From Candidatus Methylomirabilota bacterium (GTDB taxonomy: Bacteria; Methylomirabilota; Methylomirabilia; Rokubacteriales; CSP1-6), in contig JBKPCO010000035.1 in the NCBI GenBank assembly GCA_046727415.1, positions 1,554-65,553 of the forward strand: a stretch of 64,000 bases of DNA, written 5' to 3'. This document shows, piece after piece, positions 38,427-59,640 of this stretch. The position numbers were made by a program, and so were the translations under genes. The notes under the pieces were generated by a model. That model worked only from the letters and a program-made list of their open reading frames with translations. It did no database searches and was not told the origin of the DNA. Each line of letters starts with the position of its first letter. Within the stretch, counting starts at the first letter, position 1.

Positions 38427-38609
38427 ATGCCGAGCGACGAGACCCGGCGACTGCTGAAGCTCTTCGGCGTCGCCGTGACCAGCCTCGAGGACGCCATCGA
38501 CCGCAAGGCCCCCCTGGACGAGATCGCGAAGTGGGATCAGGAGCTCGCGGAGCGTACGCGCGAGACGATCGCCTTCGTGGATCGGTTGCGGAGCCGGCGC
38601 GTCGCCTGA
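38427..38609 (+). CDS. Hypothetical small helical protein (60 aa)
   Basis: AGGAGA RBS, high GC3, and a stop that overlaps the next start (TGATG). Confidence 0.45.
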   Translation: MPSDETRRLLKLFGVAVTSLEDAIDRKAPLDEIAKWDQELAERTRETIAFVDRLRSRRVA

Positions 38610-39433
38610 TGACGGCGCGGGTCGACGCGTCGGGCGTCCTCGTGGAGCTGGCGCGCCCGCCGCGCCGGATCGTCTCGCTGGTCCCGAGCACCACCGAGCT
38701 CCTGTGCGCGCTGGGTCTCGCTGACGCGCTGGTGGGCGTGACCGTCTATTGCGTCGAGCCGCGCGACGTCGTGCGCGAGAAGACCCGGATCGGCGGCGAG
38801 AAGAACCCCAACCTCGAGACGATTCGCGCGCTCGATCCCGATCTGGTCGTCGGCAATGTCGAGGAGAACCGGCGCGAGGACGTCGATCGCCTCCGCGCGT
38901 GGTCGATTCCCGTCTGGGTAGCCTACCCGCGCACGGTCGCCGAGGGCATCGAGTTCATCGGCGAGCTCGGCGAGCTGACGGGCGCCGAGCCGCGCGCGCA
39001 GGCGCTCGTGCGGGATCTGAGGGCGCTCCACGAGCGCGTGCAGAGCGCGAGCGAGCGGCGGCCCTCGGTGGCGGTGTTTTACCCGATCTGGCGCGGACCC
39101 TACATGACGATCAACGCGAACACGTACATCCACGACATGCTGCGCGTGTGCGGCGGGCGAAACATTTTCGCCGACCGACCGGAGCGATATCCGACGGTGA
39201 CGCTGGACGAGGTGGCCGCGCTCCGACCGGAGGTGATCTTGCTCCCCGACGAGCCGTTCCGCTTTCGCCGGGCGCATGTTGCCGATTTCGACGCCTACCC
39301 GGACCTGCCGGCGGTGCGCGACGGACGAATTCACCTCGTGGACGGGAAGCCCTTCTCCTGGCACGGGCCCCGAATCGCGGAGGCCCTGCGCACGGTGCCC
39401 GGGCTGATCGTGGCGGGCGTTACTTCTTCCTGA
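38609..39433 (+). CDS. BtuF/TroA-like 'helical backbone' binding protein without signal peptide
   Basis: Periplasmic-binding-protein type 2 pattern ('RIVSLVPSTTELLCALGL...LVGV', 'LDPDLVV'). The N-terminus 'MTARVDASGVLVELAR' is not a signal peptide. Confidence 0.7.
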   Translation: MTARVDASGVLVELARPPRRIVSLVPSTTELLCALGLADALVGVTVYCVEPRDVVREKTRIGGEKNPNLETIRALDPDLVVGNVEENRREDVDRLRAWSIPVWVAYPRTVAEGIEFIGELGELTGAEPRAQALVRDLRALHERVQSASERRPSVAVFYPIWRGPYMTINANTYIHDMLRVCGGRNIFADRPERYPTVTLDEVAALRPEVILLPDEPFRFRRAHVADFDAYPDLPAVRDGRIHLVDGKPFSWHGPRIAEALRTVPGLIVAGVTSS

Positions 39434-39569
39434 AGGGCAGGATCCAGTCGAGCCAGGGCGCCGCGGCGACCATGAACAGGCCCGGGATCGCGACACCGGC
39501 GACCAGGCCGACGATTCCCAGGAAGATCAGCGAGATGAGCGTGCTACACCCGTCGAAGAGCAGCGCCAT
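39420..39569 (-). CDS. Small hydrophobic protein (49 aa), absent from ORF track
   Basis: Hand translation: MALLFDGCSTLISLIFLGIVGLVAGVAIPGLFMVAAAPWLDWILPFRKK. GGGAGA RBS, 12 nt downstream of the ridA stop, almost all third positions G/C. Confidence 0.45.
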   Translation of the reverse strand: MALLFDGCSTLISLIFLGIVGLVAGVAIPGLFMVAAAPWLDWILPFRKK

Positions 39570-40087: not shown

Positions 40088-40915
40088 GTGGCACACTACC
40101 TCGTGCCCGTCAAACCTCCGCCGGTGACGCCGGTCCCGGCTGCCACCGTCGTCGTCCTTCGCGATCGTCCGGCCGGCGCCTTCGAGGTTCTCCTGATTCG
40201 GCGCCATAGCGCGAGCAAATTTGCCGCCGGGGACTTCGTCTTCCCGGGCGGTCGGATCGAAGCCGACGATGCGCCCAACGGCGCCGCGGCGTGGTGCCGT
40301 GGCCTCGACGCGGCGGGCGCCGTGCGCGCTCTCGGTCTCGAGGCGCCGCCGAACGCCGCGCTCGGCCACTGGGTGGGCGCCATCCGCGAGACGTTCGAGG
40401 AGGTGGGGATTTTGCTCGCCTACGCCGCCGACGGCCGCCCGGCCCACCTGGACGACGAGCGCCACGCGGCTTACCGGAAGGCATGCCAGCGCGATCACCG
40501 GGTTTTCCAGGACATGATCCGGGCCGAGCGGCTCACGCTCGCGACCGACCGCCTGCTGTACTTCGCCCACTGGATCACGCCGGAGGTTCAGCCCCTCCGT
40601 TTCGACACGCGGTTCTTCGCGACCGACATGCCGACGGTCCACGAGGCCGTCGCCGACGAGCACGAGATCACCGAGGTCCGGTGGCTCACGCCGCGTGAGG
40701 CGCTCGACGCCAACGTCCGGGGTGAGCTCTCGCTTCGGAATCCGACCGTCAAGAATCTCGAGCTGTTCGATGGCGCGCCCTCGGCGGCCGCCGCGCTCGA
40801 GCGGCTACGCGGCCGTGAGATCCGCGCGATTCTTCCGCGCGTGATCTTCGAAGGGGGCAAGCGGCGCGTTCTCAACCCGGGCGATCCGGGCTACGACGCG
40901 GCCGCGGGTAGCTGA
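40088..40915 (+). CDS. NUDIX hydrolase
   Basis: Nudix box 'GGRIEADD...AIRETFEEVGI'. Confidence 0.85.
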   Translation: MAHYLVPVKPPPVTPVPAATVVVLRDRPAGAFEVLLIRRHSASKFAAGDFVFPGGRIEADDAPNGAAAWCRGLDAAGAVRALGLEAPPNAALGHWVGAIRETFEEVGILLAYAADGRPAHLDDERHAAYRKACQRDHRVFQDMIRAERLTLATDRLLYFAHWITPEVQPLRFDTRFFATDMPTVHEAVADEHEITEVRWLTPREALDANVRGELSLRNPTVKNLELFDGAPSAAAALERLRGREIRAILPRVIFEGGKRRVLNPGDPGYDAAAGS

Positions 40916-40923
40916 GCGACCCG

Positions 40924-41418
40924 TCAGAAGTAGGCGAGGAGCCGCCCGCAGGCGATCACACCGGTCCACAGCGCCAGCGAGCACCCCGCCGCGAATCGCG
41001 CGGTGAGGGGAGCGGTCGCGCCCTGATCCCACTCGGCGACCCGCCGGAACGGCCGAAGATGAAAGACCGCGGCGTTGAGCGCGGCGATCACCAGCAAGAT
41101 GAGCTTCAGCCGAAACGCCGGGTTGCCGGCGAACTCCGTCGCGTGCGCGACAAACATGAGGGCGCCCGTCGGGACAATGACGAGCACCGCCGCCCGCGCC
41201 CAGGGCAGCAGATGTCGCTCCATGCCGGTGACAGGGAGCTGTCGCGAGAGCCCGAGGAGCCTCAGGTCGAACATCGCGGCGCTGCCCACGAGGACGACGA
41301 AGCCGAGAATATGCAGGATCTCGACGACCGGATAGAGCCAGAGCGACTGGCGCATCGCCGTCGCGGCACCGGTCGTCTCGAGCCAGGCGAGCCAGCCGGG
41401 ATGGCCGGCCTGCGTCAA
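40924..41418 (-). CDS. Membrane protein, DUF6644-like
   Basis: About four TM helices ('WLYPVVEILHILGFVVLVGSA...'). The family name is from memory. The TTG start overlaps the upstream stop (TTGA). Confidence 0.6.
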   Translation of the reverse strand: MTQAGHPGWLAWLETTGAATAMRQSLWLYPVVEILHILGFVVLVGSAAMFDLRLLGLSRQLPVTGMERHLLPWARAAVLVIVPTGALMFVAHATEFAGNPAFRLKLILLVIAALNAAVFHLRPFRRVAEWDQGATAPLTARFAAGCSLALWTGVIACGRLLAYF

Positions 41419-41759
41419 CGGAGCTCCACCGTCGCGCCGTCGATCGTGATGCGCTCGGCGCGCATCTCCTCTTCGTTGGTGCGATGCGGATAGCCGACAA
41501 CGGTGGCTCTCGCGCCGACCGCCAGCTTGGACGCCGGCAATCCGCGGTTGGTCATGCGCGACGGGGGCGCCAGCACGACGAGCCAGACCTTACCGGGTGC
41601 CGCCAGCCGCACGTGCCCGTGCGGATGCTCGTACCCGGACTCCTTGATGGTGCCGGTGAGCGTCAGCTCCTTCGTCGAGTCGTAGCTGCTCCAGCCGTGG
41701 TGCGCGGCGGCCGGAACAACGCTCGCCGCCATGAGCAGCAGCGCCAGGAATCCCTTCAC
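41415..41759 (-). CDS. Secreted small protein, DUF6152-like
   Basis: The GTG 41759 start overlaps the ccr TGA. Signal peptide 'VKGFLALLLMAASVVPAAA', then 'HHGWSSYD...LTGTIKE' typical of DUF6152-type proteins (family recalled, not searched). Confidence 0.65.
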   Translation of the reverse strand: MKGFLALLLMAASVVPAAAHHGWSSYDSTKELTLTGTIKESGYEHPHGHVRLAAPGKVWLVVLAPPSRMTNRGLPASKLAVGARATVVGYPHRTNEEEMRAERITIDGATVELR

Positions 41760-42994
41760 GATGCTCCCTGACCGGCCTGGCGGGCGTTGACGAGGACCGC
41801 CATGTTCCCGTACGGATGCTTGTTCTCGAGCATGAGCTGGTGGCACTCGGGGATGTCGTCGAAGACGTAGGTGTGGCTGAGACACGGATCGACCTTGCCG
41901 TCACTGACCAGCTTGGTGACGGCCGCCGCCTGAACGTCGTTGGAGAGATGGCTGCCCTGGAAGCGCTTCTGGCGCATCCAGTGATACCGGAGGTCCATCG
42001 TCGCGTTGTAGCCGGTGGTGCCGGCGCAGATGACGACCATGCCGCCGGTGGCGCAGACGAAGACCGACGTGGGCAGCGTCGATTCGCCCGGATGCTCGAA
42101 GACGAGCTTCGGGCTGACGCGCTCGCCGAGCCCATCCCAGATCGCCTTGCCGAACGCGCGCGCGCCCTTGGCCCATTCGCCATAGGCCTTGGCGTCCTCG
42201 GTGCTCGGCATGGCGCCCCAGTGGGAGAACTGGCTGCGGTTGATGACCGCCGCCGCGCCGTGCTCCTGGCAGAACTTGCGCTTGGCGTCGTCGGAGATGA
42301 TCGCGACCGCGCGCCCGCCGACCGCGTGGGTGATCTCGAGCGCCATGCTGCCGAGCCCGCCGGCGGCTCCCCATACCAGGACGACGTCACTGGGCTCGAT
42401 GACGTGAGGCGGCCAGCCCATAAGCATCCGGTAAGCGGTTGACGCGCAGAGCAGGTAGCAGCCCGCTTCTTCCCAGGTGAGCCGCTTCGGCTTGGGCACG
42501 CACTGGTGAGCCTGGCAGCGCGCGAACTGGCAGAAGCTCCCGTAGTTGGTCTGGTAGCCCCAGATGCGCGTGCTCTCGGCGAGCATCGGGTCCTTGCCCG
42601 AGCGCACCCAAGGGTCGTCGGGGCGCCACCAGCCGCTGTGCACGACCACCTCATCGCCGACCTTGACGTTCTTCACGTCCTTCCCGAGTGCCCACACGAT
42701 GCCGGAGCAGTCGCTGCCGCCGGCGTGGAAGTCCTCGGGCTCGCCGGCGCGCTGGCGCTCGGCGATCACGTCGAGCGGGGTGCCCAGCGCGGCCCAGACG
42801 TTGTTGTAGTTGATGCCCGAGGCCATGACGTAGATCAGCACCTCGTCGGGGCCGAGCGTCGGCGTGGGAATGATCTCGCGTCGCCAGGCGTCACGCGGCT
42901 GACCGAAGCGGTTCTGCCGGACGAGGTACGCGTGCATGCGTTTGGGGACTTCACCCAGCGGCGGTCGCTCTCCGAGCTCGCAAAGATCGATCAT
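41756..42994 (-). CDS. ccr: Crotonyl-CoA carboxylase/reductase family enzyme
   Basis: 412 aa, collinear with Streptomyces/Kitasatospora Ccr: 'SGINYNNVW', 'IWGYQTNYGS', 'FEHPGESTLPTSVFV' and 'RYHWMRQKRFQGSH'. Confidence 0.9.
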   Translation of the reverse strand: MIDLCELGERPPLGEVPKRMHAYLVRQNRFGQPRDAWRREIIPTPTLGPDEVLIYVMASGINYNNVWAALGTPLDVIAERQRAGEPEDFHAGGSDCSGIVWALGKDVKNVKVGDEVVVHSGWWRPDDPWVRSGKDPMLAESTRIWGYQTNYGSFCQFARCQAHQCVPKPKRLTWEEAGCYLLCASTAYRMLMGWPPHVIEPSDVVLVWGAAGGLGSMALEITHAVGGRAVAIISDDAKRKFCQEHGAAAVINRSQFSHWGAMPSTEDAKAYGEWAKGARAFGKAIWDGLGERVSPKLVFEHPGESTLPTSVFVCATGGMVVICAGTTGYNATMDLRYHWMRQKRFQGSHLSNDVQAAAVTKLVSDGKVDPCLSHTYVFDDIPECHQLMLENKHPYGNMAVLVNARQAGQGAS

Positions 42995-44007
42995 GCGTTG
43001 AATTCCTTGATGAGGCGCGGGAGCCGGGGATCATCGAGCCCCTGCTGGTAGGGTTGATAGAGTGCCGTGCTGTCGAGGAGCCCGGCGTAGCGCTCCTTGA
43101 GCCGGCGGCCGATCGTCTCGTACGTTCCGGTGACGGCAAAGGTATCGAGCATCTCATCGGTGATGAGGTCGGCCATGCCCTGCCAGTCACCCTCCACGGA
43201 TTTCCGGTGGAGCGCCGGCGTGAGATCCTGCCAGCCGTGGGCGGCGAGCACGGGCTCGTAGGTGCGCGTCGAGGCGTAGAAGGCGATCTGCTGCTTGACC
43301 GAGCGCCGGTTCTTCGCCAGCTCCTCCTCGGTGTCGCCGACCACCACGAAGCTCGCGGTGGTGTAGGTAAAGTCCGCGCGCTTGCGGCCGGAGGCCTCGA
43401 GCCCTTCTTCCACGGCGGGATTGACGTACTCGCGCAGGTACTTCGGGCTGTTGAAGGGGTGCACGTGCAGGCCGTCGCACACCTCGCCGGCGATGCGGCA
43501 CATGTACTGGTTGACGCCGGCGATGTAGATCGGCACCTTCGGGTGCGCGATCGGCCCGGGGTTGAAGAACGGCGTCATCAGGTCGAACCGGTAGAACTGC
43601 CCCTTGAAGTTGAGCTTCGTCCCGTTCTGCCAGCAATCCCAGATGTGGCGGAGGGCGAGGACGATCTCGCGCATCTTCGGCCCGGGCGACTCGAACTTCA
43701 CCGAGAATCGCCGCTCGTTGTGACCCTTCACCTGAGTACCGAGGCCGAGGACGAAGCGCCCGTCGGAGGCCTTTTGCAGGTCCCACGCGATGTGCGCCAG
43801 AATCATCGGGCTGCGCGGGAACGCCACGGCGATGGCAGTCCCGAGGCGGATCGTGGAGGTGACGCCGGCGGCGACGGCGAGGGGCAGGAAAGGATCGTGC
43901 TGGGTCTCGGAGGACCAGAGGCAATCGTAGCCGAGCGCCTCGACCTTGCGCGCGTACGCGGGGATCGACTTCAAGTCGTGGGTCAGCATGCCGACATCGA
44001 GCTTCAC
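42991..44007 (-). CDS. LLM-class F420-dependent oxidoreductase (TIGR03617-like)
   Basis: Luciferase-like barrel. The GTG 44007 start is preceded by AAGGAGAGG. The ORF-track extension to 44157 has only ~63% GC3 by hand count. Confidence 0.85.
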   Translation of the reverse strand: MKLDVGMLTHDLKSIPAYARKVEALGYDCLWSSETQHDPFLPLAVAAGVTSTIRLGTAIAVAFPRSPMILAHIAWDLQKASDGRFVLGLGTQVKGHNERRFSVKFESPGPKMREIVLALRHIWDCWQNGTKLNFKGQFYRFDLMTPFFNPGPIAHPKVPIYIAGVNQYMCRIAGEVCDGLHVHPFNSPKYLREYVNPAVEEGLEASGRKRADFTYTTASFVVVGDTEEELAKNRRSVKQQIAFYASTRTYEPVLAAHGWQDLTPALHRKSVEGDWQGMADLITDEMLDTFAVTGTYETIGRRLKERYAGLLDSTALYQPYQQGLDDPRLPRLIKEFNA

Positions 44008-44243: not shown

Positions 44244-45596
44244 TCATGATTCTCTTTGCAGGCGCCAGGCGCCCTGATACATGGCGACCGAGACGACCGT
44301 GCCGAACAGGCCGAGCGCCAGCGCCATCACGACGAAGACCGAGGCGAGGCTTGGGCCCGCGAGTCTCAGCACGATCCATCCGCCGCCGGCCGCGAAAACG
44401 AGCCGGCTCAGCCCGGCCAGGAGCGGCCACAGCAAGCGTCCGGCGCCCTGGGAGGCGAAGTAGAGCGCCAGGCCCAGGCCGAAGAAGCCATAGGCCGGCC
44501 CGACGATGCGCAGGTACGTCGCGCCAATTTCCAGGACCTCGGGGTCGGCGGTGAAGAGACCGAGCCATCGTGACGGGAAGAGCGCGGCGGCCAGCCCGAT
44601 CGTCTCCGTGACACCCGCCGCCAGCGCCGCGCCGGTCCAGGCCACCCGCCGCGCGCGTGCGCCTTGGCCCGCGCCGATGTTCGTGCCCACCATCGTGACG
44701 AGCGCCGAGCCGAAGCCGAAGACGAGCGGAATCTGGAGGTATTCGAGCCGCACGCCCACGCCGTATCCGGCCAGCGCGAAGGTTCCGAACGACCCGACCA
44801 GTGCCGTGAGCAGGACGACGGTCAGGTTCGTCTGGATGTTGTTGACGAGGCTCGGCGCGCCGACGCGCAGGATTTCCCGGAAGAGGCGACGTTCGAAGCC
44901 GACCGTCGGCAGTGAAAGCCGGACGAGGCTTCGGCCGGACACGAGGAAGCCCAGGAAGACGAGCGTGCCGACCGTGTAATAGGCGATGACAGCAAGCGCG
45001 GCGCCAGTGACGCCAAGCGCGGGAAACGGCCCCCAGCCGAAGATCAGCGCGGGCGAGGTCAGTAAGATCGGGCTGGCGCCGAGCACCACGCCGGCCGGCA
45101 GCACCATGTTGCTGCTCCCCCGGACCACGCTGGCGAGCGTGTTGAACAGCCAGACCGCGAGAGCGCCCGCGAAGATGACATTCGAGTACGCGAGGGCGGC
45201 CTCGAGCGCGTCGCCGCGCGCCCCCATGGCCGCGTAGATCGCCCGCCCGCCGGTCAGCACCACGAGCGTGAACGCGGCCGCCATGGCGACGGCGATGACG
45301 ATCGCGTGGGCCACCAGACGGCTCGCCTCCGCGGCCCGTCCCGCACCGAGCGCCCGCGCGATCGCCGAGGCGACGCCGCCGCCCATGCCGCCGGCCGACA
45401 TCGTCTGCATGAGCATGACCAGCGGGAAGGTGACCGAGACGCCGGCGAGAGCGTCGGCGCCGAGCCAGCCGACGAAGTACGCCTCCAGCACGCTGATGGC
45501 GACCTGGGCCACCAGCATGACGACGTTGGGCGCGGCCAGCGCCAGGAGGGTCGGCGCGATCGGGCCCTCGAGCAGCCGGCGGGTCCGCGCGTCCAT
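44244..45596 (-). CDS. MATE-family efflux transporter
   Basis: 450 aa, 12 TM, N-terminal 'LLEGPIAPTLLALAAPNVVMLVAQ' typical of NorM/DinF-type MATE. Confidence 0.9.
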   Translation of the reverse strand: MDARTRRLLEGPIAPTLLALAAPNVVMLVAQVAISVLEAYFVGWLGADALAGVSVTFPLVMLMQTMSAGGMGGGVASAIARALGAGRAAEASRLVAHAIVIAVAMAAAFTLVVLTGGRAIYAAMGARGDALEAALAYSNVIFAGALAVWLFNTLASVVRGSSNMVLPAGVVLGASPILLTSPALIFGWGPFPALGVTGAALAVIAYYTVGTLVFLGFLVSGRSLVRLSLPTVGFERRLFREILRVGAPSLVNNIQTNLTVVLLTALVGSFGTFALAGYGVGVRLEYLQIPLVFGFGSALVTMVGTNIGAGQGARARRVAWTGAALAAGVTETIGLAAALFPSRWLGLFTADPEVLEIGATYLRIVGPAYGFFGLGLALYFASQGAGRLLWPLLAGLSRLVFAAGGGWIVLRLAGPSLASVFVVMALALGLFGTVVSVAMYQGAWRLQRES

Positions 45597-45666
45597 GCCC
45601 TTAGAGAGTCATGCTCATCGACTATCGATTCAGATCTGACTACGAATTGTATAGTGACTAGCTTTC

Positions 45667-46149
45667 GTGTCAAGCCTCGGTTACACTGAGGCCGTGCCCA
45701 AGCGTTACGGTCAGGCGTGCCCGGTCGCGAAGTCGCTCGAGGTGGTGGGCGATCGCTGGACTCTCCTCTTGATCCGTGACCTCCTCCGCGGCCCGCGGCG
45801 GTTCCAGGATTTCCTGGAGAGCCTGGCCGGAATCCCGCCCAACATCCTCTCCGACCGCCTGAAGCGCATGGAGGCGCACGCGCTGGTGGCGCGGCGCTTT
45901 TACTCCGAGCATCCACCGCGGGCCGAGTATGTCCTGACCGACAAGGGGCGCGAGCTGAGGATGGTGGTGGGCGCGCTCGCCGCGTGGGGCTCGCGCCACG
46001 TCCACCGGCAGACGGCCCTCGTGCACGCCGAGTGCGGGCATCCGGTGGAAGTCGAGTACGTCTGCCGCCGCTGCGCCGGGCGCGTGGGGGGCACCACGGT
46101 CGAGCTCCGGCGAATGTCGAAGTCCGGCCGCGCCGCGAAGCGCCGCTAG
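45667..46149 (+). CDS. HxlR-family transcriptional regulator
   Basis: 'CPVAKSLEVVGDRWTLLLIRDL...RFQDF...I..NILSDRLKRME'. Start is GTG 45667 or GTG 45694. Confidence 0.85.
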   Translation: MSSLGYTEAVPKRYGQACPVAKSLEVVGDRWTLLLIRDLLRGPRRFQDFLESLAGIPPNILSDRLKRMEAHALVARRFYSEHPPRAEYVLTDKGRELRMVVGALAAWGSRHVHRQTALVHAECGHPVEVEYVCRRCAGRVGGTTVELRRMSKSGRAAKRR

Positions 46150-56700: not shown

Positions 56701-57540
56701 TCACGCCATTTCGTTCCAGGTCACCATGCCCGTCCCCGATCGCCACGCCACCGCCGGCATGTAGGCGAGCACGTCTGCCGGCCCGCGGGTGAAGGCGAGG
56801 ACCAACACCCACGCCAGGAGCTCGGCGGTGCCGCCCGAGCCCGCGGCTTCCAGTCGCTCGAGCGTGCACTCGCGCAACAGCGTGGTGTGATCGCCACGCT
56901 TCAGCAGGTCGAGGAACCACCGGTCGAACTCCTCGTCGACCCAGAAGTAGCGCGGCCCGCCCGGCTCGTGCGAGAGCCCGCCGGTGGCGATCACCGCGAT
57001 GCGCTCGTCGCCGGGATAGGCTGCGAGAATCTCGCGCAAGCGCGAGCCGACCTGGTAGGCGCGCTCGGGCGTCGGGATCGGCGGCACCGTGCAGTTCATG
57101 GTGACCGGAACCAGACGGAATCGCGCATCGGGGTTCAGGTAGTGGGTCGGGACCGAGATGCCGTCGTCGAACTGCATCTCGCGCAGGTACGAGAGCGCCA
57201 GGCCGCGGCGCGCGCCCTCGTTGACGATGAAGCGCGCCAGCGGGGCATGCCCGGCGACGCGGTACTTCTCCATGGCGAGCCACTCGTCGAACCATTCGGC
57301 GGGGCCGACGTGCTCCTCGCCGATGCCCACGGTGTACTCGGGCATGTTGTTGATCGGCCAGTTGAGGAGATGATCGTTGGTGAACATCACCAGCACGTCC
57401 GGCCGGGCCGCCTCGAGCCGGCGGCGCATCTCGGCGGTCGTCTGGAGCGCCAACTCCTGATACTCGCGGGACGCCCGCGTGAACCACCCGGTCAAGCCGG
57501 GCGAATGCGTCATGGCCATCGCGGCGACGACGCGCGCCAT
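56701..57540 (-). CDS. Class III extradiol ring-cleavage dioxygenase, LigB-type subunit
   Basis: 279 aa from ATG 57540. LigB-family layout ('MTHSPG', 'FTNDH', 'ATGGLSH'). The start overlaps the TAA of the LigA-like gene. Confidence 0.8.
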   Translation of the reverse strand: MARVVAAMAMTHSPGLTGWFTRASREYQELALQTTAEMRRRLEAARPDVLVMFTNDHLLNWPINNMPEYTVGIGEEHVGPAEWFDEWLAMEKYRVAGHAPLARFIVNEGARRGLALSYLREMQFDDGISVPTHYLNPDARFRLVPVTMNCTVPPIPTPERAYQVGSRLREILAAYPGDERIAVIATGGLSHEPGGPRYFWVDEEFDRWFLDLLKRGDHTTLLRECTLERLEAAGSGGTAELLAWVLVLAFTRGPADVLAYMPAVAWRSGTGMVTWNEMA

Positions 57541-57884
57541 TACCGGGAGCGCTCCAGCCGCTCTTCCAGCGCCATCGCCTGCGCGGTCTCCTCGGGGTAC
57601 GCGCGCCGATAGCACTCGAGCGCCGCGCTGGCGTTGCTGTTGTGCGCGGCGCCGAAGAACAGGCGGAGGATCTGCGGCACGTAATACTGATGCACGCCCA
57701 GGTCCATCAGGCGGCGCGGGTCCTTGTCGCGCAGCGCCTCGTACTCGGCCCGGCTCAGCTTGAACTCGCGCGCCAGCCCTTCCAGGTCGCTCAGGAAGCG
57801 CGCGCGCAGCACGGCGTCGCGGCGGACGTGAAAGATCATCTCGTTGATCGGCAGCGTCTTGTCGCAGCGCTCCACGTTGCCCAC
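57540..57884 (-). CDS. LigA-like small subunit of extradiol dioxygenase
   Basis: 114 aa. The helical 'LSRAEYEALRDKDPRRLMDLGVHQYYV' resembles the LigA (PF07746) family. Confidence 0.7.
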   Translation of the reverse strand: MGNVERCDKTLPINEMIFHVRRDAVLRARFLSDLEGLAREFKLSRAEYEALRDKDPRRLMDLGVHQYYVPQILRLFFGAAHNSNASAALECYRRAYPEETAQAMALEERLERSR

Positions 57885-57893
57885 AGGGACCTC

Positions 57894-58271
57894 CTATGCT
57901 CCCGCGCCGGCCTTCAGCACCTTGGGGTTCACCTTGAGGAACATGATGACGCATCGCTCCTGGCTGAGATTGCGAACGTCGTGCGGCACGTTCGCCGGGA
58001 ACTTCACGATGGCGCCGGCGGGCACGGTCACCTCGTCGCCGGCAATGCTCATGGTGGCGGTGCCCTCGAGGACGTAGATCGCCTCTTCTTCGCGCGGATG
58101 GCTGTGCATGACCGTCGACTGGCCGGGCTCGTAGCAGGCGATCTCGGACCAGAGCTGCTCGGTCTTGAAGAGCATCTTGCGGACGCGCTTGTCGGGGGCG
58201 AACGCCTTGAGGGCGTTGAGGTCGAACACCTGGGCGACGCCCGTCGTCACGGCAACCGCAGTCTCGTCCAT
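57894..58271 (-). CDS. Cupin-domain protein
   Basis: 'GQSTVMHSHPREEEAIYVLEG' (G-x5-HxH-x3,4-E) and 'VPHDVRN'. ATG 58271 follows GGGAGG. Confidence 0.8.
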   Translation of the reverse strand: MDETAVAVTTGVAQVFDLNALKAFAPDKRVRKMLFKTEQLWSEIACYEPGQSTVMHSHPREEEAIYVLEGTATMSIAGDEVTVPAGAIVKFPANVPHDVRNLSQERCVIMFLKVNPKVLKAGAGA

Positions 58272-58386
58272 CGGCGACCTCCCGTCGTTTTCAAAATCGA
58301 GGGCGACAGTGTACCCCGGACGCGAGTCTAGCACCCTTGACTTCGCCCGGTTTTGGTCTGACATTGCCTCGGCGTCGACGCGACCC

Positions 58387-59640
58387 ATGGAGATCAAGCC
58401 TCTTCGCGGCTACCGATACGGCGGCGACACGCGGCGCGACGTCTCGCCCGTCGTCGCGCCCCCGTACGACCAGATCAGCCCCGAGAGCCAGGAGCGGCTC
58501 TACGCGATGAGCCCGCACAACATCGTGCGCGTCTCGTACCCGAAGGACGCGGCCGACAAGTATCGCGAGGCCCATCAGGTGCTCGACCGCTGGCTGGCCG
58601 AGGGGGTGTGGCGCGCCGACGAGCAGCCGGCGATCTACCCGTACGATCAGACGTACACGGTAGACGACCGATCGGTGACGCGAACGGGCTTCATCGCGCT
58701 GGGGCAGGTCAGCGACTATTCGCGGGGCGTCGTGCTGCCCCACGAGCGCACCCATGCCGGGCCGAAGAAGGATCGGATGGATCTGCTGGAGGCTACTGGG
58801 GCTGACATCGGTCTGCTCTTCATGCTGACGAGCGATCCGGACGGCTCGCTCCGGAGCGCGACTGCGCCGGTAGGCGAGCCGATCGCGGAGGCGCGCGACC
58901 TCAGAGGCGAGCGGCATCGGCTCTGGCGCACGACGGACCCGGCGGCGATCAAGCATGCCCAATCGCGGATGGCGGACCGGCGCGTGATCATTGCCGACGG
59001 CCATCACCGATACGAGACCGCGGTGGCGTACGCGGAGCGCCATCCGCACGCGGACGACAAGCTGATGGCGTTCTTCGCGCTGGAGGCGCCCGGGCTTACG
59101 ATCCTGCCGAACCACCGCCTGGTGCACAGCGTTCAGGGCTTCGACTTCGACGACCTCATGCAGACGGCGGGCCGCTGGTTCGAGGTGGCGCCGCTTGCCG
59201 ACCCGACGGCGGCTCGCCTCGACAACCGGACGATCGCGGTTCTCAGTGGACCTGACGCGGCCTTGCTGCGGCTCAAGCCCGGCGAGCTCGATCACATCGC
59301 GTGGCCGCGCGGAACGTCGACGGCGTGGCGAGGACTCGCGGTGTCGATCCTCCACGAAACTCTGCTGCGCCCACTCCTCGGGATCACCGACGCCAGGCTC
59401 GACGCCGGCACGCACGTGGACTACACGGCCGACCGAGCCGAGGCCATCCAGCGCGCTCGCGCCGGCGCGTGTCAGGCCGCATTCCTGATCGCGCCGACCA
59501 CGGCCGAGGAGCTCCAAGCTGTGGTGCAGGGTGGCGAGCTCCTGCCACAGAAGTCCACGCACTTCTACCCGAAGCTCCTGGACGGTCTCGTCTTCCATCG
59601 GCTGGGCGACGATCGGCTGGACGGACGAGGTGCTGTCTGA
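58387..59640 (+). CDS. DUF1015-domain protein
   Basis: 'IKPLRGYRY...VVAPPYDQIS', 'VLPHERTHAGPKKDRMDLL', 'IADGHHRYETA' and 'KSTHFYPKL' are hallmark DUF1015 strings. Confidence 0.85.
   Translation: MEIKPLRGYRYGGDTRRDVSPVVAPPYDQISPESQERLYAMSPHNIVRVSYPKDAADKYREAHQVLDRWLAEGVWRADEQPAIYPYDQTYTVDDRSVTRTGFIALGQVSDYSRGVVLPHERTHAGPKKDRMDLLEATGADIGLLFMLTSDPDGSLRSATAPVGEPIAEARDLRGERHRLWRTTDPAAIKHAQSRMADRRVIIADGHHRYETAVAYAERHPHADDKLMAFFALEAPGLTILPNHRLVHSVQGFDFDDLMQTAGRWFEVAPLADPTAARLDNRTIAVLSGPDAALLRLKPGELDHIAWPRGTSTAWRGLAVSILHETLLRPLLGITDARLDAGTHVDYTADRAEAIQRARAGACQAAFLIAPTTAEELQAVVQGGELLPQKSTHFYPKLLDGLVFHRLGDDRLDGRGAV

Follow-up and report, generated by a model that had tools for sequence, protein, structure and literature searches.

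Two probably independent gene modules, LLM-Ccr and DUF6152-DUF6644, in one overlapping gene chain of a Rokubacterial genome

Organization of the gene chain

On the minus strand of the window, the whole 64,000-nucleotide stretch of DNA analyzed here, four genes are chained by start/stop overlaps: LLM (44007-42991), Ccr (42994-41756), DUF6152 (41759-41415) and DUF6644 (41418-40924). The chain and its surroundings contain the following features.

45667..46149, plus strand: HxlR-type transcriptional regulator (Pfam HxlR, E=1.3e-25), divergent from MatE
45646..45673, minus strand: predicted sigma-70-like promoter upstream of MatE (TTGACA, 16 nt spacer, TACAAT; 11/12 matches)
44244..45596, minus strand: MatE-family efflux protein (Pfam MatE, E=2.3e-37), 236 nt upstream of LLM
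42991..44007, minus strand: LLM-class F420-dependent-type oxidoreductase, 338 aa, GTG start (TIGR03617)
41756..42994, minus strand: enoyl-CoA carboxylase/reductase homologue of a Tyr-Gln clade (Ccr), 412 aa (TIGR01751)
42551..42556, minus strand: Tyr147-Gln148 codons of Ccr, aligned with the Phe170-Glu171 position of K. setae Ccr
41415..41759, minus strand: DUF6152, predicted exported OB-fold protein, 114 aa; the signal peptide ends in AAA and is followed by HHGW
41691..41702, minus strand: His20-His21-Gly22-Trp23 codons, the predicted first four residues of mature DUF6152
40924..41418, minus strand: DUF6644, predicted four-helix membrane protein, 164 aa, TTG start (PF20349)
40088..40915, plus strand: NUDIX-domain protein (Pfam NUDIX, E=4.7e-10), convergent with the operon

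The overlap chain reported in the preliminary description is real. Open reading frames were present at these coordinates, and the junctions read gcATGAtc between LLM and Ccr (ATGA overlap), tcGTGAag between Ccr and DUF6152 (GTGA overlap) and cgTTGAcg between DUF6152 and DUF6644 (TTGA overlap). The four family names given in the preliminary description all proved correct in HMM searches: LLM scored 449.6 bits against TIGR03617 (cut-off 278.15), Ccr 538.9 bits against the TIGR01751 equivalog (cut-off 378.55), DUF6152 51.9 bits against PF19649 (cut-off 27) and DUF6644 35.5 bits against PF20349 (cut-off 27; 24/24 aligned members match the family). A Shine-Dalgarno-like GGAG/GGGAG is located 4-5 nt 5′ of every start in all four genes, and GC3 is 0.88-0.91 across the chain.

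NTGA-type 4-nt overlaps are available at 340 of 1972 (~17%) same-strand junctions of the same genome. At this frequency the overlaps indicate tight packing and probable co-transcription and are, taken alone, no evidence of shared function. Three consecutive 4-nt overlaps exceed the number expected from ~17% per junction if junctions were independent, an observation that counts against reading the chain as two modules. Judged from the sequence, the four genes probably form one transcription unit, which could also include MatE. That gene is syntenic in close relatives and may be the first of the unit. A site comparable to the TTGACA-16-TACAAT promoter was not found in the 236-nt spacer between MatE and LLM. 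The predicted promoter falls in the divergent region common to MatE and the HxlR regulator gene. The NUDIX gene forms the downstream boundary of a variable slot after Ccr. As had been noted before, no gene for ethylmalonyl-CoA mutase, epimerase, mesaconyl-CoA hydratase or PKS was detected within about 12 kb around the locus.

The Tyr-Gln Ccr clade and its neighbours

Ccr displays the two-domain MDR architecture (ADH_N and ADH_zinc_N) with the pocket residues N64, Y147, Q148 and H349. N64 and H349 correspond to Asn81 and His365 in K. setae numbering and are conserved, and an aromatic residue is kept at position 170 (Tyr147). The CO2-pocket set Asn81/Phe170/His365 is therefore present when Tyr147 is counted as the equivalent of 170, whereas Glu171 is replaced by Gln148. 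The motif WGYQTNYG occurred in 78 of 80 related loci, a set biased towards the Q-type since it was partly retrieved with the peptide IWGYQTNY. Other clades of the same phylum carry E or D where the Q-clade has Gln. Published variants of the K. setae enzyme (KsCcr) bear on both positions: F170Y was fully (100%) carboxylating, and E171A kept 97% of carboxylation while the KM for crotonyl-CoA rose 25-fold (PMC6628652). On this evidence, Gln at position 171 suggests a change in how the substrate is handled and not a loss of chemistry.

Sequence identity of Ccr was 54-56% to AntE and 9KVA, 51% to M. extorquens Ccr and 37% to S. collinus Ccr. All four fell outside the Q-clade in the tree, in which this clade was monophyletic with a support of 100/100, so that the Ccr studied here does not group with a biochemically characterized Ccr clade. 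The M. extorquens clade also holds Ccrs from other families of the same class. Matches to the Q-clade were present in at least 586 loci of species-representative genomes from four phyla, with identities of 71-97%. On these sequence data the Q-type Ccr belongs to a separate ECR clade that evolves slowly and is marked by a Tyr-Gln pocket, and the Ccr of the ethylmalonyl-CoA pathway or of polyketide supply, chosen as baseline in the preliminary description, was for this reason the wrong comparison.

In 28 of ~30 Rokubacteria-like loci LLM precedes Ccr, and the two genes are adjacent in all 16 resolvable genomes of one Rokubacterial family (f1) that carry a Q-type Ccr, an adjacency seen in no other group. 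LLM is the constant upstream element of this acyl-CoA module. In other phyla, the 6-kb flanks of Q-type Ccr contained no LLM save one unrelated LLM-family match of 24% identity (L078). The protein matches Pfam Bac_luciferase with E=1.7e-70, and its nearest solved structures are distant Mer enzymes only (E about 1e-19). The search for F420 genes covered CofE and NpdG. CofE (265 bits, cut-off 181) was found on contig C13 adjoined by NpdG (208 bits, cut-off 150), and the presence of both indicates that the host makes F420.

In its fullest form the locus comprises LLM, an enoyl-CoA hydratase, Ccr, an MDR reductase and an MFS transporter. The hydratase is inserted between LLM and Ccr in 11 loci, an MDR342 orthologue follows Ccr in 12 related loci, at the place taken by the DUF pair here, and the MFS gene follows in seven. 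The genome studied here has no orthologue of the locus hydratase, and neither a ligase nor a hydratase adjoins Ccr in the window; LLM-Ccr would be a trimmed form of a family-specific acyl-CoA operon. In Acidobacteria and in Alpha- and Gammaproteobacteria the Q-clade is found beside PrpE-like or ADP-forming acyl-CoA synthetases and enoyl-CoA hydratases. PrpE-like ligases adjoin Q-type Ccr in 10 loci, and an ADP-forming synthetase together with a hydratase (crotonase) in 4-5. The PrpE-like neighbour scored 732 bits against the NCBIfam propionate-CoA ligase model and 955 bits against PDB 5GXD, which we take to be D. shibae PrpE. Ligase and hydratase neighbours in other phyla suggest processing of a short enoyl-CoA (acrylyl or crotonyl). 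Most likely, the substrate of Ccr would be a short enoyl-CoA (e.g. acrylyl- or crotonyl-CoA) derived from an imported (hydroxy)acid, which the enzyme would reduce and possibly also carboxylate; most likely it does not run the ethylmalonyl-CoA pathway. LLM would probably act on the same skeleton in a redox step linked to F420, e.g. a 3-oxo/3-hydroxyacyl interconversion.

The DUF6152-DUF6644 pair

DUF6152 and DUF6644 are genuine genes. At E<=0.001 their homologues number over 5000 and over 4600, respectively, independent JGI/ENA gene calls gave the same lengths for both, and the structure models are confident (pLDDT 91.8 for DUF6152 and 87.4 for DUF6644). At 50% identity the family falls into at least about 1400 clusters; no literature on it was found. 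The DUF6152 model has a generic OB fold, and its Foldseek matches were OB folds as well (aaRS anticodon-binding domain, Stn1/Ten1). Among 52 diverse homologues, H20, H21, G22, W23, P46 and H47 were at least 90% conserved, as was the string AHHGW; HHGW and NPH are almost invariant. DUF6644 is modelled as four long helices; His36 in the first of them is invariant, and the protein has a D51-x-RLLG motif. It gave weak, below-cut-off matches to CopD (E=0.003; 18 bits, cut-off 32), also weakly matched by 5 of 24 DUF6644 members, and to DUF2214 (E=0.004). Alignment to the small CopD proteins of the same genome with hhalign reached probabilities of 3.6% and 0.9%, with the helix-1 H-x-x-G...VG motif aligned. 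Three true CopD-domain genes are located elsewhere in the genome. No redox cofactor motif was evident in either protein.

In a phylum sample of 61 genomes, DUF6644 was encoded immediately downstream of full DUF6152 in 17 of the 17 genomes carrying DUF6152 (16 detected by HMM and G033 by tblastn). The same neighbour accompanied 4/4 distant homologues of 38-46% identity (phmmer E 1e-23 to 1e-42), and both domains are fused in one frame in two proteins, P0218 (33-aa linker) and P0191. The pair stands beside Ccr in only 4-5 of the 17 genomes (G000, G015, G025, G055 and the truncated G040), lies on a different contig in three (G002, G024, G033) and occurs without Ccr in nine. Elsewhere it is found in a tetrahydromethanopterin/Fae cluster, among polysaccharide genes, or beside DinB, cupin, YceI, nitroreductase or M50 protease genes. 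DUF6152-DUF6644 is an obligate, autonomous pair.

All four genes occur together only in genus g1 and one other genus, the latter with about 660 nt between Ccr and DUF6152; numerous soil metagenome contigs from close relatives show the same gene order. Of the two findings that the preliminary description had named as counting against it, one was borne out, the four genes being kept together only in the closest relatives; the other, mis-called small genes, was not. In the neighbourhood comparison it had proposed, LLM-Ccr was kept family-wide, Ccr and the DUF pair were not. The functional coupling of Ccr to two envelope proteins that it had implied was not supported, as the pair is autonomous and found without Ccr and in other places. 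The pair would be the occupant of a variable slot bounded by Ccr and NUDIX, with no demonstrable tie to Ccr chemistry. Three genomes without Ccr (L099, L100, L101) preserve the order LLM, MDR342, other genes, DUF6152, DUF6644, and the pair may have some connection to the LLM locus.

Interpretation and comparison with known systems

We consider it likely that two functionally independent modules, LLM-Ccr and DUF6152-DUF6644, became neighbours in one Rokubacterial lineage and now share one probable transcription unit. Three stop/start overlaps, the recurrence of this order in genus g1 and on numerous metagenome contigs, and a MatE exporter directly upstream are features expected of one pathway, in which alkylmalonyl-CoA made by Ccr, or another LLM/Ccr product, is used by or delivered to an envelope process of the DUF pair (lipid, secreted metabolite). 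The distribution largely contradicts this, and we regard it as very unlikely. The pair lacks Ccr in 9/17 genomes and has a separate locus in three more, and relatives with a 93% identical Ccr (L010, L013) have no pair, NUDIX following Ccr directly. About 660 nt separate Ccr from DUF6152 in L019/G055, and some close relatives show a 10-nt gap instead of the overlap. Moreover, distant pairs reside in unrelated contexts, and 4-nt overlaps are common in the genome. A partnership of the pair with the F420-dependent LLM instead of Ccr, e.g. as a membrane electron relay, is scarcely probable either. The gene order in L099-L101 and LLM-family paralogues near the pair in genus g10 (L105, L109, L110) speak for it. 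However, G058 and G014 carry the pair and no TIGR03617 LLM, distant pairs have no LLM neighbour, and with 80-117 first-look LLM candidates per genome chance adjacency is likely; in addition, LLM is cytoplasmic and the DUF proteins offer no evident redox cofactor motif.

A different objection concerns the enzyme itself, which could be an ordinary Ccr serving an ethylmalonyl-CoA pathway with scattered genes, its neighbours being irrelevant. Its TIGR01751 score well above cut-off, the retained Asn, His and aromatic residue of the CO2 pocket and two B12-type acyl-CoA mutase large subunits in the genome are consistent with this. Both mutases, however, measure about 530-550 aa and are split barrel subunits of the MCM/ICM type, whereas ethylmalonyl-CoA mutase is a fused form; in this MAG (84% complete) two split MCM-type subunits were found and no model naming Ecm matched. 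The position outside the M. extorquens clade, of which other families in this class have members, the clade-wide Gln for Glu171, and recurrent neighbours that are CoA ligases and hydratases rather than ecm, mcd or mch also argue against an ordinary Ccr, which we judge unlikely.

With the reading as two modules a misleading clue disappears: what looked like a link between a CO2-fixing reductase and secreted and membrane proteins would reflect gene packing in one lineage and no pathway. At the same time this reading defines a large, highly conserved, uncharacterized ECR clade with an altered CO2-pocket residue and ligase and hydratase partners, a concrete target for ECR mining towards CO2-fixation chemistry. 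It further strengthens the case for DUF6152/DUF6644 as an obligate pair, fused in some proteins, with an almost invariant N-terminal His-His, for which a metal-binding test is easy to design.

The envelope pair is probably a metal handler, by analogy with CopC/CopD, YobA/YebZ and YcnI/YcnJ. In these systems, too, a small exported protein with a mature N-terminal His is combined with a small multi-helix membrane protein, and the DUF6152/DUF6644 genes are likewise adjacent or fused. Most likely, DUF6152 would bind metal, with copper as the leading guess, at its N-terminal histidines, and would hand it to the 4-TM partner or exchange electrons with it. In the Foldseek comparison the DUF6152 model matched OB folds and not the CopC beta-sandwich. 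The two proteins would resemble CopC/CopD in outline only. CusF is a small periplasmic OB-type copper/silver chaperone with His and Trp near the metal site. It uses Met ligands and, unlike DUF6152, is not defined by an N-terminal His; it was not among the top 50 fold matches of DUF6152. As a tentative joint reading, which we hold possible though rather doubtful, DUF6152/DUF6644 might be an envelope unit of a new type that handles metal or carries out metal-dependent redox chemistry and, separately, the Tyr-Gln ECR clade might be an acrylyl-CoA carboxylase/reductase, F420-linked in Rokubacteria. The envelope unit would then consist of an OB-fold periplasmic protein with a histidine-brace-like His-His site, docked on or fused to a 4-TM partner remotely like CopD.

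With M. extorquens Ccr (PDB 4GI2, 51% identity) and K. setae Ccr (PDB 6OWE) the Q-type enzyme shares the MDR fold and the equivalog model, as well as Asn81, His365 and the aromatic residue 170; it differs in Gln for Glu171 and in its separate clade. The expectation that its context departs from the textbook Ccr was borne out by locus content: in contrast to the Ccr of the ethylmalonyl-CoA pathway, its neighbours are LLM, hydratase, MDR, MFS or CoA ligase genes, with no pathway genes near. The best sequence matches among solved structures are AntE (antimycin alkylmalonyl-CoA supply, PDB 4Y0K) and the M. metallidurans ECR (PDB 9KVA). Unlike AntE, the Ccr locus here has no PKS/NRPS context. In 9KVA, too, residue 171 is not Glu but Asn; the paper on it holds no substrate or carboxylation data bearing on this position. 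The PrpE-AcuI acrylate route and propionyl-CoA synthase (PDB 6EQO) arrange a ligase, a hydratase/dehydratase and an enoyl-CoA reductase in series, a pathway logic that has been described (PMC5651017). In other phyla the Q-type enzyme likewise stands beside a ligase or a synthetase plus crotonase, with the difference that the reductase is a Ccr-type ECR and not of the AcuI/YhdH type.

Gene arrangement and transcription

The nearest public loci to the window belong to Candidatus Rokubacteria/Methylomirabilota MAGs; the source MAG itself comprises 4.5 Mb with 69% GC and is 84% complete. As the preliminary description had reported, the window sequence contains four chained minus-strand open reading frames, and HMM searches upheld all four family names:

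44007-42991, minus strand: LLM oxidoreductase, TIGR03617, 449.6 bits (cut-off 278)
42994-41756, minus strand: crotonyl-CoA carboxylase/reductase (Ccr), TIGR01751, 538.9 bits (cut-off 378.6)
41759-41415, minus strand: DUF6152 protein, PF19649, 51.9 bits (cut-off 27)
41418-40924, minus strand: DUF6644 protein, PF20349, 35.5 bits (cut-off 27)

The three junctions read gcATGAtc, tcGTGAag and cgTTGAcg. A GGAG-type ribosome-binding site precedes each start by 4-5 nt, and all four genes have GC3 values of 0.88-0.91. The two small genes are genuine and not mis-called: their homologues number in the thousands, their structure models are confident, and their lengths and overlaps are identical in independent gene calls. 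A second DUF6152/DUF6644 pair considered at 57540-58397 was rejected, the genes there being LigA-like and cupin. The surroundings, examined to a distance of about 12 kb in both directions, are a mixture of genes for a periplasmic binding protein, RidA/YjgF, NUDIX, MatE, HxlR, an NMO-type FMN enzyme, an amidohydrolase, a family-III CoA-transferase, citrate synthase, DAP epimerase and others; ethylmalonyl-CoA-pathway and PKS genes are absent from this range, in agreement with the preliminary description. Independent gene calls on related contigs include two small ORFs, one of 49-50 aa following the YjgF/RidA gene and one of 60 aa ahead of the periplasmic-binding-protein gene (window region ~39420-39569 / 38427-38530).

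The three chained overlaps indicate a compact unit that is probably co-transcribed. They do not indicate shared function: of the 1972 same-strand junctions in the window's genome, 340 (~17%) offer an overlapping start of the NTGA type, and on a related 122-kb contig 4-nt overlaps were called between plainly unrelated genes (amidohydrolase/NMO, DAP epimerase/LOG-like). The Ccr/DUF6152 junction is a 10-nt gap without overlap in some close relatives, and in L019, a related locus from genome G055, the distance between both genes is about 660 nt. The only good promoter was a near-consensus σ70-like sequence (11/12 matches) at 45673-45646 before MatE, so that MatE may be the first gene of the transcript; a search of the MatE-LLM spacer revealed no σ70-like site. 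The promoter (45646-45673) overlaps the start region of the divergent HxlR gene (45667-46149). HxlR and MatE form a typical regulator/efflux pair, whose promoter may in addition serve the four downstream genes. No relevant RNA element was detected with Rfam between 40000 and 46500.

Gene order in related genomes

Conservation of the gene order was examined in two collections. The window's proteins were searched for in 80 related loci of species-representative genomes, a set biased by the retrieval patterns, and 61 genomes of the phylum were sampled by an HMM-based approach, chosen without any motif. Adjacency was cross-checked by tblastn, because GC3-based greedy ORF calling over-extended starts and sometimes chose antisense ORFs; calling errors included c18 and DUF genes missed in L104-L111. 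Among the related loci, 28 Rokubacteria-like ones carry LLM upstream of Ccr in the same orientation; the two genes are immediate neighbours in 17 of them and about 0.9-1.2 kb apart in the other 11. The DUF6152/DUF6644 pair follows Ccr in only 7 of the 80. L010 and L013 encode a Ccr with 93% identity to that of the window; its gene is directly followed by a convergent NUDIX gene and the pair is missing.

In the phylum sample, DUF6644 is located immediately downstream in all 17 genomes with a complete DUF6152. This pair stands beside Ccr in only four genomes (five including a truncated contig), on a contig separate from Ccr in three, and in nine genomes without any Ccr. In the Rokubacterial family of the window (f1), Ccr with Gln at the position of Kitasatospora setae Glu171 (Q-type) adjoins LLM in 16/16 resolvable genomes, and 11 genomes of this family have LLM and no Ccr. 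Family f8 has both LLM and a different type of Ccr, the two being non-adjacent; families f4 and f5 have Ccr-type genes without such an LLM.

Neighbour clustering and annotation defined the fullest Rokubacterial locus as LLM, enoyl-CoA hydratase, Ccr, a 342-aa MDR reductase (MDR342) and an MFS transporter; the hydratase was present in 11 loci, the MDR342 orthologue in 12 and the MFS gene in 7. L099-L101 lack Ccr and hydratase and retain LLM, the DUF pair and an MDR342 that shares 68-70% identity with the orthologue of other loci. Neither the hydratase nor the MDR342 orthologue was found in the window's genome, where the best matches are 42% paralogues; both have been lost. The locus is a variable slot: NMO, HxlR, MatE and LLM form one stable flank, NUDIX and YjgF the other, and gene loss and insertion account for the differences in what stands in between. 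In one genus, a 312-aa protein without Pfam or NCBIfam match occupies the place of the hydratase between LLM and Ccr (L019:5039-5977 = G055:C238). Rokubacteria-type LLM-hydratase-Ccr-MDR loci or closely related Ccr genes were also encountered in L033, L034, L036 and L039, from MAGs labelled Dormiibacterota, Bifidobacterium, Verrucomicrobiia and Limnocylindria; these labels probably reflect mis-binning, or else recent transfer.

The four-gene order is thus kept in one part only: LLM and Ccr stay together within family f1, and the envelope pair is not conserved with Ccr in relatives. A link between Ccr and the envelope proteins, as implied in the preliminary description, is not supported, since the pair also occurs without Ccr and adjoins it in only 4-5 of 17 genomes. 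The context described there as unexplained was correctly observed and annotated; it is accounted for by two modules that lie side by side in a single lineage. One appears to be a family-specific acyl-CoA locus built around a clade of Tyr-Gln enoyl-CoA carboxylase/reductases (ECRs) and an F420-type LLM enzyme, the other an autonomous DUF6152/DUF6644 envelope unit. Both are uncharacterised, which makes each a reasonable experimental target.

The acyl-CoA locus

The window Ccr shares 54-56% identity with AntE and with the ECR of M. metallidurans (9KVA); its identity to the Ccrs of M. extorquens and S. collinus is 51% and 37%, respectively. The preprint describing 9KVA contains no functional data. 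Four residues define the CO2 pocket of K. setae Ccr: Asn81, Phe170, Glu171 and His365 (PMC6628652). The window Ccr keeps Asn81 (N64) and His365 (H349). Phe170 and Glu171, the Phe-Glu of canonical ECRs, are in contrast replaced by Tyr147 and Gln148 (codons 42556-42551, minus strand), as in the whole clade. The F170Y variant of the K. setae enzyme is 100% carboxylating, and E171A retains 97% carboxylation with a 17-fold lower kcat and a 25-fold higher KM for crotonyl-CoA (PMC6628652). By analogy with E171A, Gln148 argues for changed substrate positioning rather than loss of carboxylation.

The motif WGYQTNYG was found in 78 of the 80 related loci, a set biased by the retrieval patterns. In a maximum-likelihood tree that took in four solved enzymes and, from the same phylum, other Ccr types with E or D in place of the Gln, the Q-type sequences formed a clade of short branches (support 100/100). 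The pathway enzyme of M. extorquens fell outside it, among the Ccrs of families f4, f5 and f8. The Tyr-Gln clade is monophyletic and 71-97% identical over Rokubacteria, Acidobacteria, Alpha- and Gammaproteobacteria, the non-Rokubacterial members being 71-80% identical. Outside Rokubacteria, its neighbours are a PrpE-like AMP-forming ligase in 10 loci (732 bits on the NCBIfam propionate-CoA ligase model, which is under the cut-off; 955 bits to PDB 5GXD) and an ADP-forming acyl-CoA synthetase with a crotonase in 4-5 loci. Ligase, hydratase/dehydratase and enoyl-CoA reductase are the same three activities that are combined in propionyl-CoA synthase, whose reductase domain (6EQO) is a weak PDB match of the window Ccr, and in the PrpE-AcuI acrylate route, with AcuI as reductase (PMC5651017). 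From these parallels we infer that the clade probably reduces, with or without carboxylation, a short enoyl-CoA (acrylyl- or crotonyl-CoA) that originates from a free acid. Methylmalonyl-CoA could be taken onward by two split MCM-type mutase subunits encoded in the window's genome. No ethylmalonyl-CoA mutase was identifiable in this 84% complete genome with NCBIfam models, which fail to tell it from other mutases, and a literature search on Rokubacteria and the ethylmalonyl-CoA pathway found nothing useful.

The assignment of the LLM protein to TIGR03617 is firm. No close characterised relative was found, the nearest structures being Mer enzymes (E about 1e-19). Use of F420 is plausible, because CofE adjoins the NADPH:F420 oxidoreductase NpdG elsewhere in the genome (contig C13:36852-38587). 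A small CopD-domain membrane protein of about 150 aa is encoded just upstream of CofE/NpdG (C13:36852-37136). The constant position of LLM upstream of hydratase, Ccr and MDR suggests that it might act as a redox enzyme on their substrates. If it reduced a keto group with F420H2, ahead of dehydration and enoyl reduction, a KR-DH-ER-like series would be complete. Synteny within one family could equally be simply inherited gene order. Luciferase-like oxidoreductases are very largely expanded in Rokubacterial genomes, with 80-117 first-look candidates for one LLM-family model and up to six full TIGR03617 paralogues per genome (G030).

The DUF6152/DUF6644 pair

DUF6152 homologues form 1438 clusters at 50% identity (E<=0.001), and 4/4 distant homologues (38-46% identity) have DUF6644 directly downstream. 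Both domains are joined in one frame in two proteins, each on one contig: P0218 (L132:1007-1933), with a 33-residue linker and a DUF6644 match at E=1e-56, and P0191 (L133:5001-5837). Three further apparent fusions (P0154, P0164 and P0232) were rejected as frameshifted assembly artefacts because their joins consist of Arg-rich, wrong-frame sequence. The contexts of the pair elsewhere are unrelated to one another: a distant pair is located within a tetrahydromethanopterin-biosynthesis/formaldehyde-activating-enzyme (Fae) gene cluster (L116:1095-10366, GCA_964519255.1), that of L133 lies among polysaccharide genes, and other neighbours are DinB, cupin, YceI, nitroreductase or M50 protease genes.

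Alignment of 52 diverse DUF6152 members displayed a signal peptide followed by a nearly invariant A|HHGW, together with conserved Tyr26, Pro46-His47 ('NPH'), an APPSR segment and Glu98. The AlphaFold model (pLDDT 91.8) is a five-stranded barrel with one helix, matched only by generic OB folds; our literature search returned no paper naming DUF6152. The DUF6644 model (pLDDT 87.4) consists of two short amphipathic helices followed by four long ones; His36 in helix 1 and a D-x-RLLG motif are both invariant. Foldseek against the PDB gave no match at E<1. Matches of DUF6644 to CopD and DUF2214 were weak and sub-threshold, and hhalign of its alignment against two small CopD-domain proteins of the window's genome gave probabilities of 3.6% and 0.9%.

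As leading mechanism we tentatively consider that the pair might bind metal, most likely copper, at the N-terminal histidines. As in CopC/CopD and YcnI/YcnJ, the gene of an exported protein starting with histidine precedes that of a small membrane protein or is joined to it in one frame. The resemblance is limited to this outline: DUF6152 does not have the CopC fold, and DUF6644 is at most a putative CopD relative.
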